Source: a bacterium
Lineage (GTDB): Bacteria; Fidelibacterota; Fidelibacteria; Fidelibacterales; Fidelibacteraceae
Length of the DNA stretch: 64,000 nucleotides
Direction: 5' to 3'
NCBI GenBank assembly: GCA_963676395.1
Contig: OY781066.1
Coordinates: 608,001-672,000 of the forward strand
Under the pieces are notes generated by a model. It worked only from the letters and a program-made list of their open reading frames with translations. It ran no database searches and had not been told where the DNA came from. This document shows, one piece after another, positions 10,165 through 54,306 of the stretch. The translations under genes were made by a program, and so were the position numbers. Every line of letters starts with the position of its first letter. Positions within the stretch are counted from its first letter, which is position 1.

Positions 10165-10186
10165 CGTTTCATCCAATAGTAATTGG

Positions 10187-11197: not shown

Positions 11198-11232
11198 AGA
11201 GATTTCCTCTTTTTTCATTTAGTGAAACTAAT

Positions 11233-32990: not shown

Positions 32991-35153
32991 TTATAAAGGT
33001 AAGTGCAAAATAAAACAAGAACCTTCGCCGACTTTGCTATCCACAATTATCTTTCCGCGGTGCAATTCGGCAAATTCCTTACATAATATCAGTCCTAAAC
33101 CGGTACCATGTTCACCATCTGTTCCGGGCTCACTTACTGACTTGTCCAATAAAAACAGTTTATCGCATTTCTCAGGACTCATGCCCACTCCAAAATCACG
33201 GACACACAGTTGCAACATATCGTCTTTTTCTTTAGCAATAATCTTTATTTCACTGCCATGATACGAGTATTTTATTGCGTTGGAGATTAAATTTTGTAGA
33301 ATTGTATTCAGCATATTTTCGTCTGCCAATACAACAACCGGAGAAATATCAAAATCGATCTTAATTTGTTTTTCGCGAGCGATCGTTTCCATCAACTTGA
33401 TCGTATCTTGAATGGGGAATCTGATATCCAAAGCTTTGGGCTCAAAGGATATTTTTCCTGTTTGAGACCGTGCCCATTCCAATAAATTTTCAAGAAGCTT
33501 ATATGTTTGAGTCGATACGGTTTCAATATGATTTGAATATTCTTTTACTTTATCGTAGTCTTTTTGCTCGGAGGCTTTTCTTAATAATCCCGAAAATCCG
33601 ATCAATGAATTAAAGGGACTTTTTAGATCATGAGCAATAATGGATGTAAATTTATCTTTGGTTGCATTTAATTCCTGTAATTTTTTTTGATTCCCCTTAA
33701 GGATCAAATTGGTAGATTTATTCGAGGAAAAGAGTTTCAACATAAAAAAGGCAAAAATAACGACCATACTTAAAATAATCAGGAGGAGATTCCTAACGGT
33801 TATCTCCCTTTCCAAACTCATTTCACTGACTAGGTTTTCCTGTTCTAATTCTTTTATTTTTTGTTCTCTTTTTTCATTATCGTATAACGCTTCAATTTGA
33901 TTCATGGAGCTTAGAGCTTTGGATTGACTTATAGAATCGGACAAAGCGATTTGATCACTGCGGTACTTGAATGCTTTTTCATAATTTCCTTCTTCGGCAT
34001 ATATTTCCGCCAACAAGGAACAAATACTAATCGTAATACTTTTTTGGCCATTATTTACAGCATGTTCTAAACCTATATTTAAACTATCCAACGCGGATTC
34101 ATATTCACCCATACTGTAGTATATTTGTCCATACAATTTATATAAGCCCGGGAAACCCAATACATCATTTATTGATTTTTTAATTTCTTTGGATCGGTTT
34201 AAATATCCTAAAGCCAATTCATTTTCACCAATTGAATGCTCAATTAGAGCCCTGTACTTACAAGCATTGGATAAACCAAATCCAAGATTCAATTCCTCGT
34301 ATATATCTATAGCATTTTGGTTATTATATCTTGCGCTTGCCGCATCCCCTAAATGTAGATAAGTCATTCCCAATTCATCGTGCGAAATCGCTACACCGGT
34401 TAAAGCACTGGCGTCGTCAGGTAAGGCTTTATATCTTTCCAAGGCATCACTAAAGTATTCCTGAGCTTTATCGTAAGCATCCATGGTAGTATAAATACGA
34501 CCCACACAATATGTTACCCACGCAGCGCCTTCTTCTAATTGTGCTATTTCATATTGTTCTCGCGCTTTTAAAATAAATTCAATAGCCTGCCCATAAATAC
34601 CTTCTAATCTAAAAATATTAGAAAGTTGGGCATAAACAATCGCCATATTTACATGATCGGATACTTTTCTTGAGTACACAAGAGCTTCATTATATCTTGA
34701 CATTGCTAAAGCCTGATCACCGGTCATTCTATGCTCAACAGCCCCCAAAACACCAAGGACTTTACCTAAGTTCTTATAATCGTTTTCTATTCTATAAAGT
34801 TTTACCGCTTTATTTAACAATACCATTGCCGTATCGGTTTCATCGGCATAATGACTTGTCAACCCTAAATAATGCAATGCTTTTGCTTGCAAATCAACAT
34901 ACCCCAATTTTTCTGCCTCATTAAGGGCTTGGCGCAACGTTTTCTTTGCGAGAGAATAATCAGTTCTTCTATGTTGATATCCTATCTGAAGCCTTGCTTC
35001 AATCCGAGGTTTCCCGTCATATTCTTTGGCGACTTGATATAAACTATCTAAATCTTCAGATAATAATACAGAGGAAAATGTCATCAATAGAATTAAGAAC
35101 AAGTATTTAAGCTTTGATTTAGAAGTATTCCTAAAGTTTGAACTCGAACTCAT
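32991..35153 (-). CDS. TPR-repeat membrane sensor histidine kinase
   Basis: Extracytoplasmic TPRs, one TM helix, IIAHDLKSPF, NLISNAIKY, DFGVG, GTGLGL; start moved to MSSS (GGGAG RBS). Confidence 0.92.
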   Translation of the reverse strand: MSSSSNFRNTSKSKLKYLFLILLMTFSSVLLSEDLDSLYQVAKEYDGKPRIEARLQIGYQHRRTDYSLAKKTLRQALNEAEKLGYVDLQAKALHYLGLTSHYADETDTAMVLLNKAVKLYRIENDYKNLGKVLGVLGAVEHRMTGDQALAMSRYNEALVYSRKVSDHVNMAIVYAQLSNIFRLEGIYGQAIEFILKAREQYEIAQLEEGAAWVTYCVGRIYTTMDAYDKAQEYFSDALERYKALPDDASALTGVAISHDELGMTYLHLGDAASARYNNQNAIDIYEELNLGFGLSNACKYRALIEHSIGENELALGYLNRSKEIKKSINDVLGFPGLYKLYGQIYYSMGEYESALDSLNIGLEHAVNNGQKSITISICSLLAEIYAEEGNYEKAFKYRSDQIALSDSISQSKALSSMNQIEALYDNEKREQKIKELEQENLVSEMSLEREITVRNLLLIILSMVVIFAFFMLKLFSSNKSTNLILKGNQKKLQELNATKDKFTSIIAHDLKSPFNSLIGFSGLLRKASEQKDYDKVKEYSNHIETVSTQTYKLLENLLEWARSQTGKISFEPKALDIRFPIQDTIKLMETIAREKQIKIDFDISPVVVLADENMLNTILQNLISNAIKYSYHGSEIKIIAKEKDDMLQLCVRDFGVGMSPEKCDKLFLLDKSVSEPGTDGEHGTGLGLILCKEFAELHRGKIIVDSKVGEGSCFILHLPL

Positions 35154-35222
35154 ACTATCTCCCTGGTTTAGCAAGTAATATTTAATATAGAAATTATTAT
35201 TAATATTCTAAAAGAATTTTTA

Positions 35223-37817: not shown

Positions 37818-40800
37818 TTACCAATTAAAAATATCCTCCGAAAATTTCATATGGAAGCTCAAGAAAAAATTATTATATAAATAATTTTGAGATCCAAAAT
37901 CAGGATCCTCAAATCGACTAATTTGATATCCTAAACCTACCTGCATGTTCTTGATAAGGTTATAGCCGACCTCAACCGACGAGCCTACTTTATCCTGACC
38001 TAATTGAGGAATATCAATAAATTTCACATCAGCAGCGGCATACCATTTTAAACTTAGGTCATATTCTAATCTTAAAGCAAAATATCTGGTTGTAATAATA
38101 TCTTTAAACTGAAGTATCTGTTCATCTACGATCATTCTATAGGCAAATGAAAACCCTACTTCTAATTTTTCCGTTGGCTGCCAATAATTATGTGCGTACA
38201 GAATAAATCTTTCATTATTTGTCTTATCGGCAACATGCGTATTCTTATCTTGCAAATATGCTACCTTGATCAACGAATTAAAGAAATCACTTCGCTCAGG
38301 ACGTATTGCAAGACCAATTTGATTGTCCGATTTAATAACATAATCATTAAATGATTCCAGATAATTGGTTTGCGTATACGTTAGCTTTGCAAGAAATGAT
38401 AAACCGCGCGCCAATTTAAAATCCATATTAAACATTACGTTCCATTGACGTGAATCACTCTTGGCTAACAATTCACCTTTAGCTGTCATTTTAAAAGGTA
38501 TTTCAGGCAAAAATTCAAATGAAGTTGATAGGGCCTGGTGATCAATCGTTGCAACCCTAAGGCTGTCGGCTACAGAAACATTCTCATAAGCTACGTTAAA
38601 GGTAATATTCTTACCGATCTTCCATTTATTCTTTAAACCGATGGTGGCACGGTTCCGATCGTCGCCACTGGTTCCACCAATTTCATATTTACCTGTTAAT
38701 TCGGTATTCTCTTTTACTTTTGAATCAATCCCAACAACAAATTGATTGGGTTTTTCACTGTTTTCTACACGCTTATATTTAGCTATTAAAGCTACTTTTT
38801 CGCTAATGGAATATGTTAAGCCAATACCGGTAAAAGTGGGCTTAGCCTGATCGGTCTTAATGAGGTTTTGCTCTCGTTCAACGGTTGCTTTGATTTTCTT
38901 GCCTAATTTATAATCAAGAGCTCCTTTGATCAATTGGGAACGCGTAGATTTCAGCGTATCACCGCTTATAGAGATCTTCTCGGCATTTTCATAAGCAACA
39001 TTTACATTTCCTTTTTCCAAAAACGATTGCTTATAAGTAATATTGAATGCTTTAGCGGTATTTTCATTTACAGTACCCACTTTGCTTAACTGGTTATAAT
39101 ATTCGGATTGTAATTGACCAAATTTCTCATTGCCCATTTTTAGACGAAAACCATATTTCTGAGAACCACTTTCAGAACTTTTACCTGTTTGAGACATATT
39201 TGTAAAAGACGTATCAATATTTCTATAGTATGCCGAAATATTAAAAAACTTCATAGGGTTAAATAAAATCTCTGCTTTATATGCATTACCTAAGATCTTT
39301 TCACCACTCATCTCAGGAGTAATTGACTGTGCAACTTCACTTTTTATTGACAGCCATTTAAATAAGGGCATTGTAGCATCTAAACCGTAAAGATAATAAT
39401 TTGATACTTGTTTTTCTTCCGCAACAAACAAAGCACCAAGATTCAATTTTTTAAAAAGTGTACCGTCGTATCTGATACCACCGATAGCTGTTTCTCGTTT
39501 TCCGGATTTGTATTCGTACGAAATAACAATATAAACAGGGTTGCCGTCATCATCTAAACTGGGGACAGGCTGCTTGAACATGATAGAACCATCTTCATAA
39601 TTAATGGTATAATCTTGATATCTGTTCATTTCTTTAGAACGAATAACAATTTCTGAACGATACTTATCTCTTGTCTGTATTTCGATCTTATCTGAAAGTT
39701 CAGTTACATAAGTTTGTGACAAGAAATAATAACCTGAAATACCTTCACCTCGGATCTCATCCAATTGCATTTCACGATCTGTAAAGGTACCAAAAGCTCT
39801 TATGGAATGTTCTTTATAATTAAGATCAGCAAGCAAACCGTTAAATGTTCTATTATACGCTGTAAATTCAGCTTGGTCTAATTTAGTATCAAAATCACCA
39901 TACATAACAGCCGATTCATTTTCTTCCAATTTAATAAATAATTCGGAATTACTTTGAGCATCATATTCAAGGGTAGAGGCATCACCATATACCGCATATT
40001 GCTCCGAAGGGTCAATATCCTGATAGAATTGATCACGATAATTTCGTTTAGAATCGTAAGAAGCGGTCAATTGATATTTATTAAGAATATTTCCTCTGGC
40101 GTAGAATGCTACTCGACCACCATACATAGCTAGATTATTATTAAAAACCTTTTCACGCCAAACTTCTACATCAGGTTCATTTTCATTATCAGGAAAATCC
40201 TGAAAATTTGATACCGCACCATTTACGGATCCAACAAACATAAAATCACCCTGAGGAGTTGTGTAACGAACCGGCATTTGAAAATATTCACCGCGAACTG
40301 AAACTTCAAGTATGGCCTTTGTAGCTTCTTTAGGAGATTTTACAGGGAATTTCAATTCCCCGTTTTGAACAGGTAATTGAACACCCGCTGCCATTATATC
40401 CATATCTTCCGAAGCAACTTTTCCATGTGTTAATTGTACGGTTGCAACCTTTAAGTTATCAAGCAAGTATCCCCACTCATCTCTAAATTCAAAGCTCAAT
40501 GTATCCATACTGTGTCCATCGGCCGGAATCTCTATCTTTTCTTTATAAGGAACCATGCTCTTTGGTGGCCCCATAACATGGATATTACGTTCCGAAGTAA
40601 AGATCTTATCTCGCGCACCCACTGATTCAACGCGGAACTTAACCGGCCCATCAGGGACATGAATATTGAGAAAATCATAAACACCGTCTACACGAATTGT
40701 TCCTTCGGATGCTAATTCATCGTTTACATATAATTTAGTATTTGCACCGGCTTTACCCATGACCGTAACGGCAACATGATGAAGATTTGTAACGCTGCCT

Positions 40801-40904
40801 TCCATAGGATTCAGGATAAGTGCCTGACCCAGGAGCGGGATAGCTCCCAAACAAAGGATCAATATGATCCAAAGAATTTTAAGCGTTTGTTTCTTCATAA
40901 TCAT
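37818..40904 (-). CDS. Large outer-membrane beta-barrel protein associated with DUF11/OmpA locus (putative usher-like pore)
   Basis: Signal peptide, N-terminal Ig-like domains, GRVAFYARG...LTASYDSKR...YAVYGDAS motif, ~550 aa of amphipathic beta-strands, aromatic C-terminus; ATG abuts the upstream TAA. Confidence 0.75.
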   Translation of the reverse strand: MIMKKQTLKILWIILILCLGAIPLLGQALILNPMEGSVTNLHHVAVTVMGKAGANTKLYVNDELASEGTIRVDGVYDFLNIHVPDGPVKFRVESVGARDKIFTSERNIHVMGPPKSMVPYKEKIEIPADGHSMDTLSFEFRDEWGYLLDNLKVATVQLTHGKVASEDMDIMAAGVQLPVQNGELKFPVKSPKEATKAILEVSVRGEYFQMPVRYTTPQGDFMFVGSVNGAVSNFQDFPDNENEPDVEVWREKVFNNNLAMYGGRVAFYARGNILNKYQLTASYDSKRNYRDQFYQDIDPSEQYAVYGDASTLEYDAQSNSELFIKLEENESAVMYGDFDTKLDQAEFTAYNRTFNGLLADLNYKEHSIRAFGTFTDREMQLDEIRGEGISGYYFLSQTYVTELSDKIEIQTRDKYRSEIVIRSKEMNRYQDYTINYEDGSIMFKQPVPSLDDDGNPVYIVISYEYKSGKRETAIGGIRYDGTLFKKLNLGALFVAEEKQVSNYYLYGLDATMPLFKWLSIKSEVAQSITPEMSGEKILGNAYKAEILFNPMKFFNISAYYRNIDTSFTNMSQTGKSSESGSQKYGFRLKMGNEKFGQLQSEYYNQLSKVGTVNENTAKAFNITYKQSFLEKGNVNVAYENAEKISISGDTLKSTRSQLIKGALDYKLGKKIKATVEREQNLIKTDQAKPTFTGIGLTYSISEKVALIAKYKRVENSEKPNQFVVGIDSKVKENTELTGKYEIGGTSGDDRNRATIGLKNKWKIGKNITFNVAYENVSVADSLRVATIDHQALSTSFEFLPEIPFKMTAKGELLAKSDSRQWNVMFNMDFKLARGLSFLAKLTYTQTNYLESFNDYVIKSDNQIGLAIRPERSDFFNSLIKVAYLQDKNTHVADKTNNERFILYAHNYWQPTEKLEVGFSFAYRMIVDEQILQFKDIITTRYFALRLEYDLSLKWYAAADVKFIDIPQLGQDKVGSSVEVGYNLIKNMQVGLGYQISRFEDPDFGSQNYLYNNFFLSFHMKFSEDIFNW

Positions 40905-43900
40905 TTATTTTTCTATCGTGATCTCTATTGAATCATCAAATAGAATATCACCATTACTTTGAACCTGTTCTTTTTGTGAGAGGACTCTGATCTCTACGCG
41001 GCGGTTTGCCTCGCGTCCCTCAACTGTATTATTATCAGCTATTGGATATTCCCGTCCATAACCTTTCATTTCAATTCTGCTAGGTTGGATCAAATATTTC
41101 TTGATCAAAACCTCACGTACGGCTTCTGCACGACGTTCCGATAATACTTTCCCAACCTTCCAACTACCTACATTATCACTGTATCCTTCGATTCGTATTT
41201 TTGCCCAAGGCTGCCAACGCAAAAATTCTGCGATCTTTGCAATACCTTCATCCTCAACAGATTTGAGTTTTGGAGAGTGGAATTCGAAGTCGGAATCTTC
41301 TATAACTTCCATAAAAAGCAAACGATTTACTTCGGTTGAAATGGTATTCATCATCAATGGGGTTTGATGTAATCTACCATCTCCAATATGGTATTCAAGC
41401 ATTGATACGACAGAACTGTGTGAACCGATCTCTTCGGTTTCATTTGGCAATAACTGGAAACTCATTTCATGCTGTTTAGATTCTTTTAGATCACCCATAT
41501 CCCAAATAATTGCATTTTTACCTGCTATTTCAGGTTTATATGATGCAAAATCCAGTTTACTGACCGTTTCGTCCAGAATAAAACCTTTAGGTAGATATGT
41601 GTAGAATTTAACGTCCTTAAGTAAGATAGAACCGGTATAGTTCAGATCTAACTGAAGGTTGATCTTTTGTTTTTCATCTGGAGCTACGCGAACCGGGAAA
41701 AAAGTCAGCTTAATGATGCGTCGTCCATTCTTCTCAACTCTAGACAAATCTTTTAAGTACTTACATTTGATCCGCCGTTTTTCTATACCGAATCCCTGCA
41801 GTTCTTTACACATGACATCTACAGGCTGCTGTTCTGCTTTAATAGATTTATGCATCATATTGACATCAAAACCATTGCTTTTAAAAGCTTCTTCAACGAG
41901 AACCGTAACATCACTACGCCAATTAAGATATTTTTTAATGTCTATCAGCTCTTTGCTTTTTGATAACTCATAACGGTTATTATCATTATTATATTCAAGA
42001 ACTAATTTCATTGACCAAGGATCATAGGAAGTCATTCTTAATGCCCTAGTCATTGTTTCTTGTTCTATATCAACAACAGATCTTTCAGGAAGCTGTTTAT
42101 TGTTTTTAGGTTTTTCTGCTTTTGTTACAACTTTTTTCTCGGGTACAAAGTTTTCGCCACCGAGTACAAAATTCGCTTTAGCGATACCCGAGGCGGATAG
42201 CTTAACAAGTCTTGAATCCGTATCGCCAAGGAAATCACTTGAAGAAAGTAATACATGAGTATTCTTGGGCAAGGTAATTGGATTAATCTTAAGTACATGA
42301 GACCCTAAGCGTACACTTGGAATTGAGTATTTACCATATTCATCTGTAGTAACTCTTACACCATTTTCAGTAACTAATTCAACATTTTTAAAAGTCTCTT
42401 CATCATTATCGTGCATGTTGTTTCCATTGCGATCGTAAAATACTTTACCAAAGATCAAACCATAACCTTGCATCATACTTGGTTTAATAACAACCTTGGC
42501 AACAGCTATATTAGAAAGAACCTGATCACCTGTTTGGAAGTAACCTCGAGCAGATGCCATATTTTCATTCTCACCGAAGCTGCAATTCATACCGACAACG
42601 GTACGATACTTAATCTTTATACTTCCCCCCGGAGCAATGGAACGATCAACATGCCATAATAGTGTTGCCCGATTATCTTGCATAAGCATTTCGGGATCGG
42701 CAATAGTCTCGGTACCAATAATGGTACGACCTTCACGATATCTGAAACCGACAGGAAGTTTATCGGTCAGCAAAAAGTTTGTAATACCTTGATCTTCACT
42801 TTGATTTGTTACTTCAACGGTATATGTCAACACATCACCCAATTCGGCGATCTGTTTGTTTACAGTTTTTTTAACAACAAGAAATGGAGCAATAATACTT
42901 GAAGTTGCCTTTGTACGGAGATCATCGGCAGTATAAGCTGTATCATTTTCAGTATAGATATAAGCAGTATTCGTGATATCTTTTTCAATATTAGCCGTAA
43001 CTTCAACAAGAAAAGTAATTGAATCGTGCTGTTGAGCGTGCATACCATAACGAAGGAATGAAACTTCATTGCTAACCGGGTTATATCTATCAAAACGCAT
43101 ACCCATACCATTAACAAATGAACTTTCGATAAATTCAACTTCTTCGGGAAGCTGATCTACAAGATGAATAGTATCGGCGATCACATTATCCAATGTTTGG
43201 AAATAAATTGTGTACCTTAAACTATCACCCTTAACCACAATCTCTTTATCTACCCGTTTGTATACATCAAAAAGAATCGGCTCATTGTAGATATCGGCAT
43301 TAATCACATGAATACCGCTTTGATCTAAATTTACTTCCCGGGTTCCTGCATAGAAATATTCGCCTTTTCCAAAAATAGCATCGATCCTGTAATTGCCAAG
43401 ATCCAATTTATTAAAATAAAAGAAACCACTTGTATCAGTGCTCACAGAATCAATATATACGGGATTGTCATTATATTTATTCAGGGTGTTTTCACTAAGG
43501 TGGCTTAAGTAAATACTGACTCCCGATCTACGGATAGGATCACCTGACATATGATCAACGATCCTTCCAGATAAAGCAGCCGTATTTTTAACATCATCAA
43601 CCTGTCCTGTACCGGAATCGGTAACCTCAACTGGCTGATCAATCGTATGACTATCACCTTTTTTATCATTGAATTGAACTCTAATGATATAATCACCGGA
43701 ATGATAAAGAGCAATACTATAGTTACCGGATTCATCTGTGACAGCTGATCCGATAATATTACCACCCTGGATCAACAGTACTATAGCACCACTTACGGGC
43801 AATCCGGAATTATCACGAACAACACCGTTAACTCTTCGTGCATAAAATACAACATCGGTGGAGTCAGTTAATCTATCACCATTTACAGCAACAACTTCGG

Positions 43901-46148
43901 CACTGACCTTTGTTGGTACATAATCGGTAGATACAACCTCTGAACGCAAACGCATTTCGGCATAGCCGTTTGAAGTACTGACAATATGATTTGTACTTAA
44001 TAGAGTACCGTGTTCAGTATAAAAATGAACATCGGTACCATCGGATACTGGTCTCCCGGCACCATCAAATACACGGGCTGTTAATTGTGTATAATCTTCA
44101 CCATTTCCAATGACTGAATCAGGATTCGCTGTTAAATCTAATTTATAAGGCTTGATCTCAGTAATAAAAGTATTTGATTCAGAAACAACACCCAATGATT
44201 GAATGTTTGCTTTATTTTTAATCTCTTCGACCGCTATATGATCTTCTTTTATTTTAACATCAAGTTTAACACTACCTTGAGTATTAAGAGCTAAATGTCC
44301 TAAATTCCACATTACAGTATTATAAGTACTATTGTAATTATATGCGCCGGTTGCAGAGATAAATTTTAAGTGCTCACTTAAGGTATCAACAATAACGGTT
44401 GATGTTGCAACAGCATTTCCTTGATTAGCATAATTAAAAATATAGCGGATCGTATCACCAACCAATGCTTCATCGACTGAAGATTTAACCAGGCTTAATC
44501 CTGGAGCGGAAACAATTTCGACAAGGGATGTATCTTCTGCAGAAAATCCACAATCAGATTCCATTACAGCATTGTTATTTAACTCAGTACCGTTTACCAA
44601 AGGTTTATGAACCCTAACACTCAAGTTTAATGCTTGCGATGAGCTCATTAAAGCATCCACATCACCAAGAAACCATTGAATCACATGATCATGGGTATAA
44701 TAATGGTAGGTACCGGAAGCAGATATAAAATCGACATGAGCAGCTAAAGTATCATAAACCATTACATTCTTTGCTATACCATGTCCGCTATTAATATAAT
44801 CAATCGAATAATTTACCAGTTCACCCGCCTGCACTTTAGTGCTGTCGGCTGTTTTACTTATTTGTAATATAGGTGACTCAATTAAAATATCGGAATAAGC
44901 TGAAGCAGCCTTTCCTTCGAAACATACAATATCAGATTCACTGCGTAAATAACTTCCATCTGGAACACTTTTTTTAATTCTTACTGTAACTTCAACCGTA
45001 TCTTGTTTACCGGCACTCAATGGATCAGGATGAAAGGTGATATCATTATCATAAAGATCATAAATCGCACTCATGGAAGATGAAATATACTCCATATTCT
45101 TGTGCAAAGTTTCTTTCATTTCCAAACCGGTAGCGGCAGCATTCCCACGGTTTTCGATGAAGATTTGATATGTGACAGTATCTAAAGGTGAAGCATATGA
45201 AGGCATACTTCTTTGCATATAAAGATCAGGTTCACCTAATGATTCAGATACAAGTACTTTAGCGGATGTATACTTTTGTTCCCCCCCGGAACTTACGGAT
45301 GCAAAGTTAACAATATTGGTACCGGCCGGGACACCATCACGAACAATTACCATTACACTTCTTTCAACAATGTCACCCGGGTGAACATCACCTACAGACC
45401 ATGAAACGATGCCACTTTGTTCTTGCTTATCACCGCTTGCCGAAACAAAAACCAATTCTTGTGGCAAATCATCAAATAGCATAACATTATAGGCTGGAGC
45501 ATTACCCATGTTAAAAATGCGTATATTGTAATTAAGAGTTTCACCGGGCCTTGCACTGGGCTTATCAACTATTTTTTCTATACTAAGTGAAGCCTTATTC
45601 CCAATTAGAATACTTGCCGGTGCAGAAATACCCTTAACTTTTTCAGCAGTTTCGTAAACCGCCGTGTTTAAAATTTCTTCATCATGTGAAAAACCGGGAG
45701 GAACCATACAGAAGATATCAAACTGTAAAGCATTCCCGAAATTTAAACTAAGATTATCCCAGGTAAGAACATTAGCGTTCACCTGAGCTGGTGGATTAGA
45801 GCTAAGATAGGTTAATTCACTGGGTAAGGTATCGGAAACCGAAAATGAAGAAGCGATGAAATTACCCGTATTACTGATCTCAATATGATATTTTACTGTA
45901 TCCATGGGAAGGTAAACGGGTGAATCAACCGATTTAGAGATTGTTAAAAGATATGCCGGTGCAACAACAGTCGTTGTTTGCTCACTTGAAACATTATAAC
46001 GATAACCACCCGCATCAGAATAACTACCATGTGCGGTATTGGTGATCTCAGTTCCAAAAGGAGTTTGCGCATAAATGCAACTAATACTTGATACAACAAG
46101 TACCAGCAGCATATAAATTACCCGCAATGTCAGAAACCGGTCTCTCAT
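40905..46148 (-). CDS. Multi-DUF11 surface protein with Big_1/SdrD-B-like Ig domains and C-terminal OmpA peptidoglycan-binding domain
   Basis: Seven L.I.K..D....GD...Y.I...N.G...D.LP repeats; IFGKVFYDRNGN SdrD-B-like; IEGYSDNVG...LSERRAEAV...GYG...NRRVEI OmpA. Confidence 0.88.
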   Translation of the reverse strand: MRDRFLTLRVIYMLLVLVVSSISCIYAQTPFGTEITNTAHGSYSDAGGYRYNVSSEQTTTVVAPAYLLTISKSVDSPVYLPMDTVKYHIEISNTGNFIASSFSVSDTLPSELTYLSSNPPAQVNANVLTWDNLSLNFGNALQFDIFCMVPPGFSHDEEILNTAVYETAEKVKGISAPASILIGNKASLSIEKIVDKPSARPGETLNYNIRIFNMGNAPAYNVMLFDDLPQELVFVSASGDKQEQSGIVSWSVGDVHPGDIVERSVMVIVRDGVPAGTNIVNFASVSSGGEQKYTSAKVLVSESLGEPDLYMQRSMPSYASPLDTVTYQIFIENRGNAAATGLEMKETLHKNMEYISSSMSAIYDLYDNDITFHPDPLSAGKQDTVEVTVRIKKSVPDGSYLRSESDIVCFEGKAASAYSDILIESPILQISKTADSTKVQAGELVNYSIDYINSGHGIAKNVMVYDTLAAHVDFISASGTYHYYTHDHVIQWFLGDVDALMSSSQALNLSVRVHKPLVNGTELNNNAVMESDCGFSAEDTSLVEIVSAPGLSLVKSSVDEALVGDTIRYIFNYANQGNAVATSTVIVDTLSEHLKFISATGAYNYNSTYNTVMWNLGHLALNTQGSVKLDVKIKEDHIAVEEIKNKANIQSLGVVSESNTFITEIKPYKLDLTANPDSVIGNGEDYTQLTARVFDGAGRPVSDGTDVHFYTEHGTLLSTNHIVSTSNGYAEMRLRSEVVSTDYVPTKVSAEVVAVNGDRLTDSTDVVFYARRVNGVVRDNSGLPVSGAIVLLIQGGNIIGSAVTDESGNYSIALYHSGDYIIRVQFNDKKGDSHTIDQPVEVTDSGTGQVDDVKNTAALSGRIVDHMSGDPIRRSGVSIYLSHLSENTLNKYNDNPVYIDSVSTDTSGFFYFNKLDLGNYRIDAIFGKGEYFYAGTREVNLDQSGIHVINADIYNEPILFDVYKRVDKEIVVKGDSLRYTIYFQTLDNVIADTIHLVDQLPEEVEFIESSFVNGMGMRFDRYNPVSNEVSFLRYGMHAQQHDSITFLVEVTANIEKDITNTAYIYTENDTAYTADDLRTKATSSIIAPFLVVKKTVNKQIAELGDVLTYTVEVTNQSEDQGITNFLLTDKLPVGFRYREGRTIIGTETIADPEMLMQDNRATLLWHVDRSIAPGGSIKIKYRTVVGMNCSFGENENMASARGYFQTGDQVLSNIAVAKVVIKPSMMQGYGLIFGKVFYDRNGNNMHDNDEETFKNVELVTENGVRVTTDEYGKYSIPSVRLGSHVLKINPITLPKNTHVLLSSSDFLGDTDSRLVKLSASGIAKANFVLGGENFVPEKKVVTKAEKPKNNKQLPERSVVDIEQETMTRALRMTSYDPWSMKLVLEYNNDNNRYELSKSKELIDIKKYLNWRSDVTVLVEEAFKSNGFDVNMMHKSIKAEQQPVDVMCKELQGFGIEKRRIKCKYLKDLSRVEKNGRRIIKLTFFPVRVAPDEKQKINLQLDLNYTGSILLKDVKFYTYLPKGFILDETVSKLDFASYKPEIAGKNAIIWDMGDLKESKQHEMSFQLLPNETEEIGSHSSVVSMLEYHIGDGRLHQTPLMMNTISTEVNRLLFMEVIEDSDFEFHSPKLKSVEDEGIAKIAEFLRWQPWAKIRIEGYSDNVGSWKVGKVLSERRAEAVREVLIKKYLIQPSRIEMKGYGREYPIADNNTVEGREANRRVEIRVLSQKEQVQSNGDILFDDSIEITIEK

Positions 46149-46172
46149 CTCTCTCTCGGTTTTACATTAAAC

Positions 46173-46195
46173 CCTGCCCCGAAAATCGGGGCAGG
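46173..46195 (-). terminator. Intra-operon hairpin (attenuator or stabiliser) between shaft and anchor genes
   Basis: CCTGCCCCGA/TCGGGGCAGG 10 bp stem followed by a weak GTTTAAT tract on the minus strand. Confidence 0.7.
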
Positions 46196-46231
46196 ATTTT
46201 ATTTCAAAGATAACGTTAAGCGTTAAACTTA

Positions 46232-47911
46232 TTATTGAATTTTAGTTTTAAATTCAACGGTTGTTGAAGCGCCGGCACCCAAAGTAGGAAGTTCGAAGAC
46301 AACGGTATTTTTTTCAAGTTGTGCTTCATCTTCATCCTTGGCATCTGTTTTTGCTACACCACCCAGTTTCATAGTACCTCTTTGATACCATGTGTTTTCA
46401 GGGACATCATCATCAATTCTTAGATCTGTTGCAACACCTGTACCAACGTTTAAAATAGTAATGGTGTATGTCAGAACTGTACCTGGAGGTTGGTTACCTG
46501 TAGGCGATACGGCTTTTAAAAGGGATAGGATAGGAGCCGTAACAGTGATTGTTAATTCACCTTCGTCTGACTCATCTTCATTTCCTTCTGAAGTGGCTGT
46601 AAGGGTCATAACAGAAACAACTTCATCAGGTGTACCTGCCGGAATCTGGCCTTTGGCAACAAGATATACAACTGCACCCTGAGCCATTGTAGCTGTTTGA
46701 GCATCTTCTAGTTCTTCTTCATCTTCATCGATCCGACCGTTTTCATTGGCGTCCAAATAGAATTCCCAATCTGGGATCAAATCACAGACCTCAGAAATAT
46801 TCATTTTGTCGGGACCATTACCTTTATTGGTCACCGTAACTGCGTAATAAACATAATCTGAGGGGTCACCGACAGTTACCTGATCGGAACCTACTGCAAC
46901 AAACCAGATCTGAGCTACTGTTAACGTAGCACCACTGGCATTAGCTGATACAGCGAGCTGATCTTCACCTAAAATATTCTTCCAAAGCAATACGGCTGCA
47001 TTGGCAATGACTGTATTTACAGGAACATTATCATTGATTACAATCTGGAAAGTTGCTGTTGCACTTGAGCCACTGCTGATTTCATCAAACATGAAATTGG
47101 CAACTGAAGGAACGCCTTCGATAAATTCAGCGTCATCATCACCTTTATCGTCTGATTGTGCTACCCCATTGATCTTAAGAGATCCGGCTACATATGACGT
47201 GTTTACAGCAATACCTGCCGCAAATACAACATCCTGAGCATCTGCCGAACCTGTATTGGTTACTGCCAATGTATAAGTAACAACATCACCCGGTTGAGGA
47301 TCATTGTTATCAGCAGTCATCGTAAAGGTATACTCTGAAGTTTTTACTCGTACGCCCATGTATGCGGCTGTTTTGATCTCATTATTAAAACGTGATTCCA
47401 AACCAAGTGTAATATTTGCTGATGAAGCATCTTCTCCCGAAATATTTTCAACAACGACGACAATGTTGTATGACGTGTACATTGCCATATCAGGAGTTTC
47501 TCTGACTTCTTCTTCGCCTTCATCTACAACGCCATTTCCGTTGGCATCATGATATACGGTTGAAACAAATTCATCTCCTGTAGGACTTTGAAGAGCATTG
47601 CTGATCTTATATGAATCAACACCGTTTCCCGTATTAACGATCGACATTGGAAATGATACTGTTCCGTATAAAACCATATTCTGGAAAGCTTCCATCGGCG
47701 ATAAATCCACACCGGCAACCTGTGATACGATCGTTGTTACTGTGTTTGAGGTTACGCTGGCCATGGCATTGCCATTGGCATCACGGTAGTTACCTGTTGC
47801 AAAGTTGCTGATCTCTGTGCCTGCCGGTGTTGGTAGAGCAACCATTGCAAAGGCAACACTCGACAACATTATCGTTGCCAAAAGTGCGACTAATACATGT
47901 TTAAATTTCAT
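46232..47911 (-). CDS. DUF11-domain secreted protein, putative major pilin/shaft subunit (copy 1)
   Basis: Signal peptide; N-terminal TPAGTEISNFATGNY...SNTVTTIV segment; Ig domains with DANGNG/DANENG Ca-type loops; C-terminal truncated DUF11 domain. Confidence 0.8.
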   Translation of the reverse strand: MKFKHVLVALLATIMLSSVAFAMVALPTPAGTEISNFATGNYRDANGNAMASVTSNTVTTIVSQVAGVDLSPMEAFQNMVLYGTVSFPMSIVNTGNGVDSYKISNALQSPTGDEFVSTVYHDANGNGVVDEGEEEVRETPDMAMYTSYNIVVVVENISGEDASSANITLGLESRFNNEIKTAAYMGVRVKTSEYTFTMTADNNDPQPGDVVTYTLAVTNTGSADAQDVVFAAGIAVNTSYVAGSLKINGVAQSDDKGDDDAEFIEGVPSVANFMFDEISSGSSATATFQIVINDNVPVNTVIANAAVLLWKNILGEDQLAVSANASGATLTVAQIWFVAVGSDQVTVGDPSDYVYYAVTVTNKGNGPDKMNISEVCDLIPDWEFYLDANENGRIDEDEEELEDAQTATMAQGAVVYLVAKGQIPAGTPDEVVSVMTLTATSEGNEDESDEGELTITVTAPILSLLKAVSPTGNQPPGTVLTYTITILNVGTGVATDLRIDDDVPENTWYQRGTMKLGGVAKTDAKDEDEAQLEKNTVVFELPTLGAGASTTVEFKTKIQ

Positions 47912-47929
47912 CTGTCTCTCCTTAAAATA

Positions 47930-48418
47930 TTATTTTACTGTTACTTCAAATTCGAGCTGCTTACTTTCTTTCGGTGTAAGCGATTTCTTCAATTCCCATT
48001 GTACGTGTGTAACCATATCGGGGGAAGCGGCTTTTTTAACCATTTTACCATTTTTGTCTTTTATCTCATACTTAGGAGGCCATGCCTGATAAGTTCTGCC
48101 ACCATCAATAGAAAAACTTACATCTGCATGTTTACCTTTGGCCGAATTAGGTTTATACGATGTACCGGCTGGAATAGGATCCGTGATCACTGGTTCTGTC
48201 ATGGTTCCTGTTCCTATATTCTGTGCCCAAACCGTATATTTGATCACATCACCCGGTCGATAGGCAATTGCTTCTGTGCCCATTCTTTCTGCCTGACTCA
48301 TGTTCATTTTCTTTTCTGCGATGCGCAGTTCAAGCTTTGGGCTACCTTGTGCAAATGCTGCAGTACCAAAAACTAAAGCTACCAACAGAACGAGGACTGT
48401 TAATTTACGTAGTTTCAT
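47930..48418 (-). CDS. Single DUF11-like domain secreted protein, putative chaperone (copy 1)
   Basis: Signal peptide; RPGDVIKYTV..QN.G......ITDPIPAGTSY...FSIDGGRTY...VTHVQW; basic composition. Confidence 0.78.
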   Translation of the reverse strand: MKLRKLTVLVLLVALVFGTAAFAQGSPKLELRIAEKKMNMSQAERMGTEAIAYRPGDVIKYTVWAQNIGTGTMTEPVITDPIPAGTSYKPNSAKGKHADVSFSIDGGRTYQAWPPKYEIKDKNGKMVKKAASPDMVTHVQWELKKSLTPKESKQLEFEVTVK

Positions 48419-48430
48419 TCTCTCTCCTTT

Positions 48431-49195
48431 TTATTTGACTACTACTTTATATATTACATTACCACTGCCACCGGCCTCTAAATTACCATTTAATGTAAAA
48501 AGCAAATCAGTAACAGGTAAGGTCTCTTCGTTATTATATGTTAATCCGCCATCATGGCTGTAAGTGACAGTCATATTATTTCCAGCAGCCGTACCGGGGA
48601 CATAATCCGTATTACTGCCTATCGTTTCATAGATCATTACAGAAGTTGCATCACCATCACCGCTATTTACATACGTAAGCGTATAAGTAAGCTGCTCTCC
48701 CGGAAGTCCGGTACTTTTATCTACAGATTTATTCAAAACAAGAAGCGGCGCTGTTGTACCCTGAACATTAACAGTTGCAGTAGGACCTATTTGTGTTTGA
48801 GAAATTCGATATCCCGTAACTCCGACATATACACCGAAATCACCCGTTTTTAAACTGGTAGTCGCTTTAAAATTAATCACTACCTTTTCTCCACTCCACA
48901 TAAGGAACCAATTAGTCCATGTTAACTGGTTTCCGTTGATATATGGATTTGAGTTTGTAGCACCATAAGTAGAGTTATTTACATAAGTAAATCCATCGGG
49001 TAAAACGACTACAGTTTGTGTTGGCATAATCCAATTTCGTCCGGTATTCCTTATCGTTAGAACATAAGTTACTTCTTCTTGAGGAGCTACTGCAGAAGGT
49101 GTTGCTGTTAAAGATAATGAGACGGCAGCAAAAAGGCTTGTAAGCGAAAAAGCCACTAGCAGAACTACAATTTTTTTCATAATTGTTTTTCTCAT
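48431..49195 (-). CDS. Two-domain DUF11 secreted protein, putative tip subunit
   Basis: Signal peptide; Trp-rich N-terminal DUF11-like domain; C-terminal LVLNKSVDK...PGEQLTYTL domain ending IYKVVVK. Confidence 0.78.
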   Translation of the reverse strand: MRKTIMKKIVVLLVAFSLTSLFAAVSLSLTATPSAVAPQEEVTYVLTIRNTGRNWIMPTQTVVVLPDGFTYVNNSTYGATNSNPYINGNQLTWTNWFLMWSGEKVVINFKATTSLKTGDFGVYVGVTGYRISQTQIGPTATVNVQGTTAPLLVLNKSVDKSTGLPGEQLTYTLTYVNSGDGDATSVMIYETIGSNTDYVPGTAAGNNMTVTYSHDGGLTYNNEETLPVTDLLFTLNGNLEAGGSGNVIYKVVVK

Positions 49196-49839: not shown

Positions 49840-49896
49840 CATATTACACAGGTTGTTATAGGATTCCTAATTAATTATCTTTAATAAACACTTAAG
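49840..49896 (-). promoter_or_regulatory. Conserved regulated-promoter motif, copy 1
   Basis: CTTAAGTGTTTATT..ATAATTAATTAGGAA-N13-TGTGTAATATG; shared with 52566 and 54249. Confidence 0.65.
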
Positions 49897-50030: not shown

Positions 50031-50057
50031 CTCATTGTATTAAAGTTCTTAAGTTTA

Positions 50058-51737
50058 TTATTGGATTTTAGTTTTAAATTCAACGGTTGTTGAAGCGCCG
50101 GCATCCAAAGTAGGAAGTTGAAAAACAACGGTATTTTCTTCAAGTTGTGCTTCATCCTCATCCTCGGCATCTGTTTTTGCTACACCACCCAGTTTCATAG
50201 TACCTCTTTGATACCATGTATTTTCAGGAACATCATCATCAATTCTTAGATCTGTTGCAACACCTGTACCAACGTTTAAAATAGTAATGGTGTATGTCAG
50301 AACTGTACCTGGAGGTTGGTTACCTGTAGGCGATACGGCTTTTAAAAGGGATAGGATAGGAGCCGTAACAGTGATTGTTAATTCACCTTCGTCTGACTCA
50401 TCTTCATTTCCTTCTGAAGTGGCTGTAAGGGTCATAACAGAAACAACTTCATCAGGTGTACCTGCCGGAATCTGGCCTTTGGCAACAAGATATACAACTG
50501 CACCCTGAGCCATTGTAGCTGTTTGAGCATCTTCTAGTTCTTCTTCATCTTCATCGATCCGACCGTTTTCATTGGCGTCCAAATAGAATTCCCAATCTGG
50601 GATCAAATCACAGACCTCAGAAATATTCATTTTGTCGGGACCATTACCTTTATTGGTCACCGTAACTGCGTAATAAACATAATCTGAGGGGTCACCGACA
50701 GTTACCTGATCGGAACCTACTGCAACAAACCAGATCTGAGCTACTGTTAACGTAGCACCACTGGCATTAGCTGATACAGCGAGCTGATCTTCACCTAAAA
50801 TATTCTTCCAAAGCAATACGGCTGCATTGGCAATGACTGTATTTACAGGAACATTATCATTGATTACAATCTGGAAAGTTGCTGTTGCACTTGAGCCACT
50901 GCTGATTTCATCAAACATGAAATTGGCAACTGAAGGAACGCCTTCGATAAATTCAGCGTCATCATCACCTTTATCGTCTGATTGTGCTACCCCATTGATC
51001 TTAAGAGATCCGGCTACATATGACGTGTTTACAGCAATACCTGCCGCAAATACAACATCCTGAGCATCTGCCGAACCTGTATTGGTTACTGCCAATGTAT
51101 AAGTAACAACATCACCCGGTTGAGGATCATTGTTATCAGCAGTCATCGTAAAGGTATACTCTGAAGTTTTTACTCGTACGCCCATGTATGCGGCTGTTTT
51201 GATCTCATTATTAAAACGTGATTCCAAACCAAGTGTAATATTTGCTGATGAAGCATCTTCTCCCGAAATATTTTCAACAACGACGACAATGTTGTATGAC
51301 GTGTACATTGCCATATCAGGAGTTTCTCTGACTTCTTCTTCGCCTTCATCTACAACGCCATTTCCGTTGGCATCATGATATACGGTTGAAACAAATTCAT
51401 CTCCTGTAGGACTTTGAAGAGCATTGCTGATCTTATATGAATCAACACCGTTTCCCGTATTAACGATCGACATTGGAAATGATACTGTTCCGTATAAAAC
51501 CATATTCTGGAAAGCTTCCATCGGCGATAAATCCACACCGGCAACCTGTGATACGATCGTTGTTACTGTGTTTGAGGTTACGCTGGCCATGGCATTGCCA
51601 TTGGCATCACGGTAGTTACCTGTTGCAAAGTTGCTGATCTCTGTGCCTGCCGGTGTTGGTAGAGCAACCATTGCAAAGGCAACACTCGACAACATTATCG
51701 TTGCCAAAAGTGCGACTAATACATGTTTAAATTTCAT
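50058..51737 (-). CDS. DUF11-domain secreted protein, putative major pilin/shaft subunit (copy 2)
   Basis: Identical to 46232..47911 except four residues in the last 35 aa. Confidence 0.8.
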   Translation of the reverse strand: MKFKHVLVALLATIMLSSVAFAMVALPTPAGTEISNFATGNYRDANGNAMASVTSNTVTTIVSQVAGVDLSPMEAFQNMVLYGTVSFPMSIVNTGNGVDSYKISNALQSPTGDEFVSTVYHDANGNGVVDEGEEEVRETPDMAMYTSYNIVVVVENISGEDASSANITLGLESRFNNEIKTAAYMGVRVKTSEYTFTMTADNNDPQPGDVVTYTLAVTNTGSADAQDVVFAAGIAVNTSYVAGSLKINGVAQSDDKGDDDAEFIEGVPSVANFMFDEISSGSSATATFQIVINDNVPVNTVIANAAVLLWKNILGEDQLAVSANASGATLTVAQIWFVAVGSDQVTVGDPSDYVYYAVTVTNKGNGPDKMNISEVCDLIPDWEFYLDANENGRIDEDEEELEDAQTATMAQGAVVYLVAKGQIPAGTPDEVVSVMTLTATSEGNEDESDEGELTITVTAPILSLLKAVSPTGNQPPGTVLTYTITILNVGTGVATDLRIDDDVPENTWYQRGTMKLGGVAKTDAEDEDEAQLEENTVVFQLPTLDAGASTTVEFKTKIQ

Positions 51738-51755
51738 CTGTCTCTCCTTAAAATA

Positions 51756-52244
51756 TTATTTTACTGTTACTTCAAATTCGAGCTGCTTACTTTCTTTCGG
51801 TGTAAGCGATTTCTTCAATTCCCATTGTACGTGTGTAACCATATCGGGGGAAGCGGCTTTTTTAACCATTTTACCATTTTTGTCTTTTATCTCATACTTA
51901 GGAGGCCATGCCTGATAAGTTCTGCCACCATCAATAGAAAAACTTACATCTGCATGTTTACCTTTGGCCGAATTAGGTTTATACGATGTACCGGCTGGAA
52001 TAGGATCCGTGATCACTGGTTCTGTCATGGTTCCTGTTCCTATATTCTGTGCCCAAACCGTATATTTGATCACATCACCCGGTCGATAGGCAATTGCTTC
52101 TGTGCCCATTCTTTCTGCCTGACTCATGTTCATTTTCTTTTCTGCGATGCGCAGTTCAAGCTTTGGGCTACCTTGTGCAAATGCTGCAGTACCAAAAACT
52201 AAAGCTACCAACAGAACGAGGACTGTTAATTTACGTAGTTTCAT
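51756..52244 (-). CDS. Single DUF11-like domain secreted protein, putative chaperone (copy 2)
   Basis: Protein identical to 47930..48418. Confidence 0.78.
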   Translation of the reverse strand: MKLRKLTVLVLLVALVFGTAAFAQGSPKLELRIAEKKMNMSQAERMGTEAIAYRPGDVIKYTVWAQNIGTGTMTEPVITDPIPAGTSYKPNSAKGKHADVSFSIDGGRTYQAWPPKYEIKDKNGKMVKKAASPDMVTHVQWELKKSLTPKESKQLEFEVTVK

Positions 52245-52565
52245 TCTCTCTCCTTTTTATTTGACTACCAGTTTGTCTTCTTTATTAGACTCTTTTCAAC
52301 TTCAAACATATACTTTATTAAATAATAGCAAAAAAATTAAAAGCAAGCGCATAGACATGGTTACAAAACCATATCAAGAAAAATAAAGCTCTTAATTTTT
52401 CAGTTCTAGATTACTATTAAGATATATTGAATTCCCCTTTGAGGGAAACACTCTATCATATCTTATAGTAAAATCACAATCCCATGTTGTTGTTTGAATT
52501 TGATACATCTCTTCATTCTCTCTCCATTCACTCACTTCACATATCTTCGACTATCTCTCTATATG

Positions 52566-52622
52566 CATATTACACAGCAAGTTAAGTATTTCCTAATTAA
52601 TTATAATTAATAAACACTTAAG
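52566..52622 (-). promoter_or_regulatory. Conserved regulated-promoter motif, copy 2
   Basis: CTTAAGTGTTTATT..ATAATTAATTAGGAA-N13-TGTGTAATATG. Confidence 0.65.
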
Positions 52623-53080: not shown

Positions 53081-53569
53081 TTATTTTACAATAACCTGGA
53101 ATTCCAGCTCCTTGCTTGCATTAGGAGCTAAAGATTTTTTCAATTCCCATTGAATATGTGTAATCATATCCGGTGAAGCCATCTTTTTAACGGTTTTTCC
53201 ATCTCTATCCTTAATTTCGTATTTTGGTGGCCAGGATTGGTATACTTTTCCACCATCAATAGAAAATACGATATCTGCAAAACTTCCTTTTGCACTGTGA
53301 GGCTTATAGGAAGTCCCCGTAGGAATAGGATCACTTATCACCGGCTCGGTCATCATGCCTTTTCCTACATTTTGGGCCAATACGGCATAGCGTATCATAT
53401 CACCGGGTTTGCAGGTAACTTTAACCTTACCCATTTTTTCTGCTTGAGTCATATTGATCTTGGTCTCAATAATAGTCAATTCCAACTTTGGTCTGTCCTG
53501 AGCAAAAGAAAACACAGAATAAAACAAAACCAAAACCATTATAAATGGTAATTTTTTGCCTGTCTTCAT
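53081..53569 (-). CDS. Single DUF11-like domain secreted protein, diverged third paralog of the putative chaperone
   Basis: 162 aa, colinear with 47930..48418 (EPVISDPIPTGTSYKP, FSIDGG, WPPKYEIKD, ASPDM.TH.QWELKKSL). Confidence 0.8.
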   Translation of the reverse strand: MKTGKKLPFIMVLVLFYSVFSFAQDRPKLELTIIETKINMTQAEKMGKVKVTCKPGDMIRYAVLAQNVGKGMMTEPVISDPIPTGTSYKPHSAKGSFADIVFSIDGGKVYQSWPPKYEIKDRDGKTVKKMASPDMITHIQWELKKSLAPNASKELEFQVIVK

Positions 53570-54248: not shown

Positions 54249-54306
54249 CATATTAGACAATCAGCCAAGAAATTCCTAATTAAGTTATACTCAATGTTTT
54301 GTTAAG
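54249..54306 (-). promoter_or_regulatory. Conserved regulated-promoter motif, copy 3
   Basis: CTTAAC...ATAACTTAATTAGGAA-N13-TGTCTAATATG. Confidence 0.6.

Follow-up and report, generated by a model that had tools for sequence, protein, structure and literature searches.

Complementary splitting of a DUF11 (CLIPPER) domain among conserved secreted proteins suggests a covalent, peptidoglycan-anchored fibre in a Fidelibacteraceae bacterium

Can secreted immunoglobulin (Ig)-like proteins of a bacterium with an outer membrane be joined head to tail into a covalent fibre through a single domain that is divided between them? This question is raised by an operon of five genes in a window of 64,000 nt (positions 608,001-672,000 of the forward strand of contig OY781066.1, assembly GCA_963676395.1, Fidelibacteraceae), which belongs to a genome assembled as a single contig of 2.34 Mb. 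The operon encodes proteins of 254, 162, 559, 1747 and 1028 amino acids (aa), referred to below as the candidate tip, the 162 aa protein, the shaft, the anchor and the outer-membrane protein. A first-pass annotation, made from the DNA letters alone, had proposed that one DUF11 unit is divided between these proteins and that they assemble as a tip-(shaft)n-anchor fibre. DUF11 has been renamed CLIPPER, and an intramolecular Lys-Asn bond has been demonstrated in it: in structure 9IFR, Lys715 on the first strand is bonded to Asn806 on the penultimate of nine strands, with Asp748 assisting (PMC12617251). We assign a probability of about 0.65 to the reading that the operon forms a covalent fibre by strand complementation of a split CLIPPER domain, and that this fibre has its anchorage in peptidoglycan and a tie to a giant outer-membrane protein, as yet uncharacterised.

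We assigned domains to the operon proteins with Pfam and NCBIfam, considering Pfam matches at E ≤ 0.01. DUF11 (PF01345, cut-off 24.6 bits) was detected in the anchor (263.8 bits), the shaft (55.4 bits), the candidate tip (50.2 bits) and the 162 aa protein (162a, 26.2 bits), and all 17 DUF11 matches in the genome fell within this locus. A diverged copy of the 162 aa protein, 162c, scored 21.5 bits, below the PF01345 cut-off, and passed that of TIGR01451 (31.7 against 24). In the anchor, the Lys, Asp and Asn triad was kept in cis by six of seven full DUF11 domains. The terminal domains of the shaft, the candidate tip and the 162 aa protein carried Lys and an acidic residue, with no Asn strand in cis.

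As a reference for profile alignment with hhalign, we used 105 complete DUF11 domains of anchor orthologues, extended as far as the next domain and comprising 125 columns. The C terminus of the shaft (residues 455-559, 95 sequences) aligned with columns 1-85 (probability 98.9, E 1.5e-17), as did that of the candidate tip (probability 99.4, E 4.8e-22), and the 162 family aligned with columns 11-85 (probability 98.6, E 1.1e-15). In all three acceptors, column 85 is the last residue of the protein itself, so that the C-terminal domain of the shaft is incomplete on its own, stopping at column 85 of 125. The N terminus of the shaft (residues 25-68) aligned with columns 86-106 (probability 62, E 7e-5) and that of the anchor with columns 88-122 (probability 72, E 3e-5). 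Since the acceptors end at column 85 and the donors begin at columns 86-88, the split point of the domain is, by these alignments, common to three acceptor and two donor types. With a local HMMER profile built from complete DUF11 domains of anchor orthologues (99 positions), complete domains matched positions 1-98, and the terminal domains of the shaft, the candidate tip and the 162 aa protein stopped at positions 82-83, which is their own C terminus; 162c ended at position 83. Because the Asn of 9IFR lies on the penultimate of nine strands, the piece missing from the acceptors corresponds to strands 8 and 9, with the Asn on strand 8.

These alignments bear out the first-pass description of the shaft as an N-terminal donor plus a truncated C-terminal acceptor, of the candidate tip as a truncated acceptor only, and of the anchor as an N-terminal donor plus an OmpA domain, and the shared split point lends support to the order tip-(shaft)n-anchor. 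Six-frame translation of the genome gave 2,403 open reading frames (ORFs) of ≥100 aa, and the motif P.G[TS].I.N.A was found within the first 80 residues of only the shaft, its near-identical second copy and the anchor (559a, 559b and 1747). A donor hidden Markov model (HMM) searched genome-wide matched the same three proteins only (anchor residues 28-63, i-E 5e-7). Pfam gave no match on the bare 53-residue donor peptides, and a PDB sequence search with the shaft profile gave none.

The triad of the split domain (Lys466 and Asp501 in the acceptor and Asn36 in the hairpin of the shaft) lies at the same profile positions as the bond-forming triad of the solved CLIPPER domain. We found 136 homologues of the shaft at E ≤ 1e-10, with labels including Marinimicrobia, Desulfobacterales, Syntrophales and Ignavibacteriae (taxon names of relatives are the labels or titles of the records). 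One of them comes from the cultured Desulfatibacillum aliphaticivorans (ACL01783.1 / WP_028313896.1), and tblastn of the shaft against plasmids gave no match. In an alignment of the shaft with 95 of the 120 listed homologues (96 sequences, fragments and near-duplicates left out), K466 and N36, the two residues already named at first pass, were kept in 96/96 and 94/96 sequences, D501 in 96/96, and I34 and A38 of the donor hairpin in 96/96. The complete internal domain 2, which served as a cis control, kept its own Lys in only 54 and its own Asp in only 57 of the 96; in the shaft of the window, this domain has lost both cis residues (M198, A232) and the trans set has been kept. Mean identity to the shaft of the window was 0.69 for the donor hairpin, 0.50 for the acceptor domain and about 0.30 for the three middle domains. 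The 900-aa shafts of loci labelled Krumholzibacteriota or Latescibacterota showed the same N-terminal motif, Lys, Asp and abrupt end.

Very high N-terminal conservation would also fit a recognition signal, and a more compact form of seven strands has been described for DUF7507/CLIPPER_2 domains (PMC12617251). The proteins could thus be separate DUF11 adhesins or envelope proteins that form no polymer, with an N terminus that is a targeting signal read by the 1028 or the 162 aa protein and with short C-terminal domains that are a compact variant. We consider this rather improbable, since the N-terminal segment is homologous to the strands missing from the C terminus and begins at the very column where the acceptor stops, since an invariant Lys and Asp without an Asn partner in cis would have no reason to persist, and since the donor-only and acceptor-only architectures are complementary.

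In the assembly that we favour, secreted Ig-like proteins would join head to tail via one split CLIPPER domain. The hairpin of the shaft, starting a few residues after signal-peptide cleavage, would supply the two strands that the C-terminal domain lacks, so that the hairpin of one subunit would complete the C-terminal domain of the subunit ahead. Completion would put Asn36 beside Lys466 and Asp501, an interchain Lys-Asn isopeptide bond would form, and each subunit junction would resemble an ordinary junction in a tandem CLIPPER array. The candidate tip and the 162 aa protein, having an acceptor without a donor, could sit only distally; the anchor, having a donor without an acceptor, could sit only proximally, and its OmpA domain would hold the fibre to peptidoglycan. 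The stalk of the anchor would most likely pass through or beside the 1028 aa outer-membrane protein, which would form the envelope part of the machinery and is the best candidate for the route of subunits to the surface. Growth might occur at the base, as in chaperone-usher pili, or outward from a pre-installed anchor, the latter being suited to the fused forms described below.

As donor and acceptor lie on one chain, a shaft subunit might instead insert its own hairpin into its own C-terminal domain, giving a covalently closed ring; single-chain predictions of donor-strand pilins are indeed often closed (TafA, PMC11821415). Closure of this kind appears very improbable. Insertion in trans must occur because the candidate tip and the 162 aa protein have an acceptor only and the anchor a donor only. 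Moreover, direct reading shows no linker between the hairpin and domain 1, a junction like that of strand 9 with the following domain in tandem arrays, and this absence of a linker favours an extended chain.

The genes that encode the divided domain stay together. A scan with the 162 family as query gave a set of 64 loci, and the order 162 > shaft > anchor > barrel was found in every locus that was sufficiently long, with 162 as the first gene of the conserved set in 64/64 (162 being the query). A 254-like tip was present in 15/64 loci only. The neighbourhood survey suggested at first pass revealed a co-conserved, syntenic set from which the tip is mostly missing, and the partner conserved universally with the shaft is the 162 aa protein rather than the 254 aa tip. 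The order recurred in loci labelled as three candidate phyla, and eight loci around barrel homologues (L017-L020, L022, L023, L025 and L026) had the same gene order, two of these loci containing broken genes. Barrel homologues were found in 16 of the 21 other genomes of the genus that were searched and in another family. The distribution is patchy within the phylum of the window, where the barrel profile matched 36/201 sampled genomes; the 162 family was found in 48/121 sampled genomes of the phylum of locus L057. In a search of representatives with the 162-family profile, the matches were dominated by giant multi-DUF11 proteins. Beyond the DUF11-linked set, no further conserved neighbour such as a peptidase, sortase or chaperone was found, the next clusters being antisense ORFs or present in ≤14 loci.

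In 25/64 loci, mostly labelled Krumholzibacteriota or Latescibacterota, the gene after the shaft matched both the OmpA domain and the barrel (five were cut at a contig end). These fused-type loci lie among L057-L087, for example L078:4610-10561. In 20-odd loci with these labels, donor, DUF11 domains, OmpA and barrel make up a single ORF of 1,900-1,990 aa. Eight complete ORFs were read and showed a signal peptide, a donor-like N terminus, DUF11 domains, OmpA and the barrel, in this order; PF00691 scored 45.2 bits in a fused orthologue. One such locus also encodes, after the fused anchor-barrel gene, a tip-like protein of 423 aa (L087:16826-18094) in which an N-terminal CBM96 carbohydrate-binding module (66.8 bits, cut-off 26) is combined with a truncated DUF11 acceptor at the C terminus.

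Several observations weigh against a covalent fibre at the surface. The two donor alignments cover short stretches, and their probabilities (62 and 72) are moderate. Asn36 is replaced by Ala in 2/96 shaft homologues and its equivalent in 2/51 shaft ORFs of related loci, and the donor residue of fused anchors is Ser in seven, Gly in two and Pro in one, versus Asn in six. Since Asn is so often replaced in fused anchors, the Lys-Asn bond is not universal, and the joint between fibre and anchor in fused-type loci may, judging from these substitutions, be non-covalent. Shaft and anchor donors gave no signal of co-variation (0.258 within versus 0.253 across genomes, permutation p 0.36), in a crude test that used a regular-expression alignment with one mis-hit and one offset. 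In the 162 family, K37 and D80 are both kept in 8/25 fused-type loci versus 13/16 loci with a tip. The ~750 aa part of the 1028 aa protein is probably a beta-barrel, with sub-threshold matches as the basis of this assignment, and the surface location of the fibre is one that we infer.

Part of these data would be explained by a fibre without the bond, held together by hairpin complementation as in chaperone-usher pili or TasA fibres, with the triad serving packing or hydrogen bonding: a few shafts have Ala and many fused anchors have Ser in place of Asn, with the remainder of the motif kept. In Clostridium perfringens, BsaA oligomers lacking the bond are still stable in sodium dodecyl sulfate until heated (PMC11580942). 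We nevertheless regard a non-covalent fibre as unlikely, given that the residues concerned are the bond-forming triad at the same profile positions as in the solved CLIPPER domain and that the triad is better conserved in trans than in the internal domain in cis.

The role of the 162 aa protein was addressed through the conservation of its residues. The first-pass annotation had called it an acceptor-like domain without the Lys; the acceptor-like character was confirmed (columns 11-85), and the absence of the Lys was not, as 57 of 65 homologues have K at position 37, the others having R (7) or L (1). K37, in a family whose profile alignment starts at column 11, may be equivalent to the bond-forming Lys. 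At position 80, 50 of the 65 have D, 13 have G and two have N, and M135, H138 and W141 are invariant. Because selection on the bond residues is relaxed, because the gene lies directly before each shaft gene and because the two have been duplicated as a pair, we consider it somewhat more likely that the 162 aa protein caps or chaperones the donor hairpin reversibly (or acts as a starter) than that it is a permanent covalent tip.

A more tentative extension, which we regard as possible rather than probable, is that the system represents a new class of bacterial pilus, built by a pathway that resembles chaperone-usher assembly with the roles reversed and a chemical ratchet added. The 162 aa protein would then work in the periplasm as an acceptor chaperone, capping each new subunit reversibly at its donor hairpin, and the giant outer-membrane protein would be both assembly platform and conduit. 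The autocatalytic Lys-Asn bond would make the transfer of the hairpin irreversible and would thereby drive ATP-independent assembly across the outer membrane, the finished fibre being one covalent chain tied to peptidoglycan via OmpA.

The 1028 aa protein has 87 homologues, all unnamed, and no Pfam or NCBIfam family matched it above threshold, DUF2490 being the only sub-threshold match. The only solved sequence relative that a PDB search returned for its profile was an Ig-like stretch, corresponding to residues 77-211. Weak Pfam matches among 31 homologues were Invasin_D3 (12) and Big_1 (10) in the N-terminal part, and the barrel families DUF2490 (6), OMP_b-brl (4), IAT_beta (2), OmpA_membrane (2), Autotransporter (1) and others. 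Look-alikes in the atlas were unnamed or outer-membrane-like clusters, one of them OmpA-fused, which we take as a lead only. In the fused forms the barrel module comes immediately after the periplasmic OmpA domain, and the Ig-like N-terminal part of the protein should accordingly be periplasmic. With regard to autotransporters and inverse autotransporters, the region presumed to form the barrel, at ~750 aa, greatly exceeds in size the 12-stranded Autotransporter or IAT_beta domain, and the passenger-OmpA-barrel order of the fused forms only loosely recalls the classical type.

The fused forms carry the DUF11 stalk, OmpA and the N terminus of the barrel protein on one chain, OmpA domains are periplasmic, and the operon proteins lack an export signal, for instance a type IX C-terminal domain. 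This would suit an envelope tether, with the polymer or the anchor confined to the space between outer membrane and peptidoglycan and with the barrel only fixing it in the outer membrane. We judge such a tether quite improbable: with more than 12 Ig-like domains before OmpA in the anchor and four in each shaft subunit, the structure would, by rough estimate, be longer than the width of the periplasm, and a tip-like protein with a carbohydrate-binding module suggests an outward-facing function. Type IX secretion of the subunits was set aside, there being no Por_Secre_tail or type IX C-terminal domain on any operon protein, despite a PorV/PorP-like gene in the window (10190-11218). The window also holds a Por_Secre_tail protein (145-1548) and two SusC-like CarboxypepD_reg/Plug proteins (6994-10176 and 15099-18320). 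Omp85 homologues are present in the genome, and an outer membrane is therefore expected.

Covalent pili are a textbook feature of Gram-positive bacteria and need sortases; the pili of diderm bacteria are, to our knowledge, held together non-covalently. The fibre that we favour resembles the sortase pili of monoderms in its covalently joined Ig-like pilins with intramolecular isopeptides, in its tip, shaft and basal subunits and in its base on the cell wall. It differs from them in that its proteins end right after a beta-strand, in that the bond would be autocatalytic and would run from side chain to side chain, and in that attachment to the wall would occur via an OmpA domain and not a covalent link. 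No match to the sortase family PF04203 was found in the genome, in keeping with the sortase independence proposed at first pass, and the C termini, which read ...EFKTKIQ, ...YKVVVK and ...EFEVTVK, have no LPXTG signal or hydrophobic tail.

Chaperone-usher pili (Fim, Pap) likewise occur in diderms and complete an incomplete Ig-like fold with the N-terminal extension of the next subunit, and they share the tip-shaft-terminator logic and the large outer-membrane protein encoded in the operon. However, they donate one strand, form no covalent bond and have a terminator that is not bound to peptidoglycan; in addition, their chaperone acts as strand donor to the groove, whereas the small 162 aa protein is an acceptor. 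The usher family PF00577 had no match in the single-contig genome (an E. coli control matched) or in the 1028 aa protein, and PapD-like chaperone families had no Pfam match among the operon proteins, the genome not having been searched for them. With respect to type V pili (Bacteroidota Fim/Mfa), no FimA or Mfa family matched the operon proteins, and direct reading of these proteins and their orthologues revealed no conserved lipobox Cys.

A close parallel in mechanism is the "exchange and lock" of donor strands in C. perfringens BsaA, which is supported by mutants (PMC11580942). There, too, an N-terminal segment enters the beta-sandwich of the next subunit, an autocatalytic Asn-Lys bond forms with an acidic helper, no sortase is involved and the same operon holds paralogues without the triad (PMC11580942). 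The corresponding pattern in the operon (N-terminal Asn donor, Lys and acid in the acceptor, all conserved) is one read from sequence. BsaA has another fold and family (TasA/camelysin), whereas here a split CLIPPER domain would donate two strands; no TasA/camelysin or Peptidase_M73 match was found by Pfam among the operon proteins at E ≤ 0.01. Furthermore, the BsaA system belongs to a monoderm, undergoes processing by SipW and lacks a component in the outer membrane, in contrast to the peptidoglycan-binding anchor and giant outer-membrane protein encoded here. The threads of Sulfolobus acidocaldarius (Saci_0406) also combine donor-strand complementation with an intermolecular isopeptide bond, need no sortase and have an adjacent gene for a putative cap (PMC9715654). 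Yet they are archaeal, with no outer membrane, no DUF11 and an unknown assembly machinery, and in their bond Asn57 is paired with the N-terminal amine of subunit n+2, in place of a Lys-Asn link between neighbours (PMC9715654).

Fibrillar adhesins built of CLIPPER domains (9IFR) belong to the same family, have the same Lys/Asp/Asn triad and resemble the anchor, which is a typical tandem array. In these adhesins the bond is intramolecular, while here the terminal copy is divided between two polypeptides; the accessible part of their description reports CLIPPER domains with intramolecular bonds only (PMC12617251). In its division, the domain of the operon would have an engineered analogue. SpyTag/SpyCatcher is a split isopeptide domain derived from CnaB, in which a strand with one reactive residue re-associates and bonds spontaneously. 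That pair is man-made and does not form a polymer, whereas the present split would be natural and head to tail.

A full-text literature search, subscription-only papers being outside its scope, found no description of a split, polymerising DUF11 fibre or of a covalent diderm pilus, and a 2026 review of bacterial surfaces gives, in its accessible part, chaperone-usher, type IV, sortase and curli routes only (PMC13721041). The system is thus widespread and undescribed in the literature searched; its interpretation is supported in the core, and the part that concerns the machinery is what we infer. If the interpretation is correct, a self-locking covalent fibre with its own outer-membrane component would constitute a new route of pilus assembly, and nature would have split an intramolecular isopeptide domain to join proteins, giving a polymerising counterpart of SpyTag/SpyCatcher. 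A function would also be provided for three families annotated as "hypothetical" or "DUF11 domain-containing", whose members come from groups labelled Marinimicrobia, Krumholzibacteriota, Latescibacterota and Desulfobacterota. Surface fibres tipped with carbohydrate-binding modules would be relevant to substrate attachment in these mostly uncultured organisms, and the pair of donor and acceptor could serve as a new self-ligating protein tag.

The coordinates of the features are collected in Table 1. The five ORFs proposed as an operon at first pass were all recovered at the same coordinates, on the minus strand and co-directional; the extent of the locus was larger than proposed, as a second 162+559 pair and a third 162 gene lie upstream. 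All five operon proteins have signal-peptide-like N termini, ending by direct reading in AFA, FAA, FAQ or YAQ, and the stop codon of the anchor gene directly abuts the start codon of the 1028 aa gene.

Table 1. Features of the split-CLIPPER locus, numbered from the first nucleotide of the window
Feature	Position	Strand	Content or basis
Candidate tip, 254 aa	48431-49195	-	Signal peptide, one complete Ig-like domain without triad, C-terminal truncated DUF11 acceptor (K156, E190), no N-terminal donor
162a, small secreted acceptor-only DUF11 domain, candidate cap or chaperone	47930-48418	-	Profile alignment; first gene of conserved set
559a, shaft subunit	46232-47911	-	Signal peptide, donor hairpin, three Ig-like domains, truncated acceptor domain
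Shaft donor hairpin, residues 27-65 (TPAGTEISNFA...VTTIVSQV), with N36	47717-47833	-	Corresponds to strands 8 and 9 of CLIPPER domain
Shaft acceptor domain, residues 456-559, with K466 and D501, without strands 8-9	46235-46546	-	hhalign columns 1-85
Anchor, 1747 aa	40905-46148	-	Donor hairpin, seven DUF11, Big_1, CarboxypepD_reg-like, C-terminal OmpA; no C-terminal acceptor
Anchor donor hairpin, residues 28-63 (TPFGTEITNTA...)	45960-46067	-	Donor HMM i-E 5e-7
OmpA-like peptidoglycan-binding domain of anchor, residues 1621-1716	41001-41288	-	PF00691, 64.1 bits, cut-off 27.2
Outer-membrane protein, 1028 aa, uncharacterised family	37818-40904	-	Signal peptide, ~220 aa Ig-like N-terminal part, ~750 aa probable beta-barrel
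162b, duplicate of 162a	51756-52244	-	Protein identical to 162a; within repeat 50049-52276
559b, second shaft gene	50058-51737	-	555/559 residues identical to 559a
162c, third, diverged 162 aa acceptor-only copy	53081-53569	-	62% identical to 162a
Stem-loop between shaft and anchor genes	46173-46195	-	10 bp, 8 G-C
11-mer TTAATTAGGAA, upstream of 254 aa gene	49864-49874	-	Within ~100-nt element
11-mer TTAATTAGGAA, upstream of 162b	52590-52600	-	Within ~100-nt element
11-mer TTAATTAGGAA, upstream of 162c	54273-54283	-	Within ~100-nt element

A block of 2,228 nt that holds the 162 and 559 genes (46223-48450) recurs upstream with 15 mismatches, all near the block ends. The two shafts differ by four changes, K525E, K534E, E540Q and G545D, all of them in the C-terminal acceptor domain. 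This near-identity, together with the placement of the mismatches and of the changes, suggests a recent duplication or gene conversion, possibly yielding two shaft variants.

The 11-mer TTAATTAGGAA occurs three times in the window versus 0.12 times expected, each time 350-720 nt upstream of a gene (254, 162b or 162c), and it is probably a promoter or regulatory site that three transcription units share. The intergenic region between shaft and anchor folds with a minimum free energy of -27.9 kcal/mol (z -4.2), and its stem-loop is possibly an attenuator or an mRNA stabiliser favouring the major subunit. Comparable structure (z ≤ -2) was found in only 4/14 folded intergenic regions, that of the window included, and is thus not a general feature.

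On the 3' side, the operon is followed by proC, a lipid kinase and a sensor kinase, and on the 5' side a hybrid sensor kinase lies on the opposite strand. The best NCBIfam match of the sensor histidine kinase three genes downstream (32991-35174), which contains tetratricopeptide repeats (TPR), was FimS, at 233.5 bits against a cut-off of 600; FimS is the fimbrial regulator kinase of Porphyromonas. Finally, two acidic loops of the shaft, at residues 121-135 and 386-400 (DANGNG..D.GEE and DANENGRIDEDEEE), resemble calcium-binding loops in sequence, and the turn of the donor hairpin reads DANGN and is nearly invariant among homologues.

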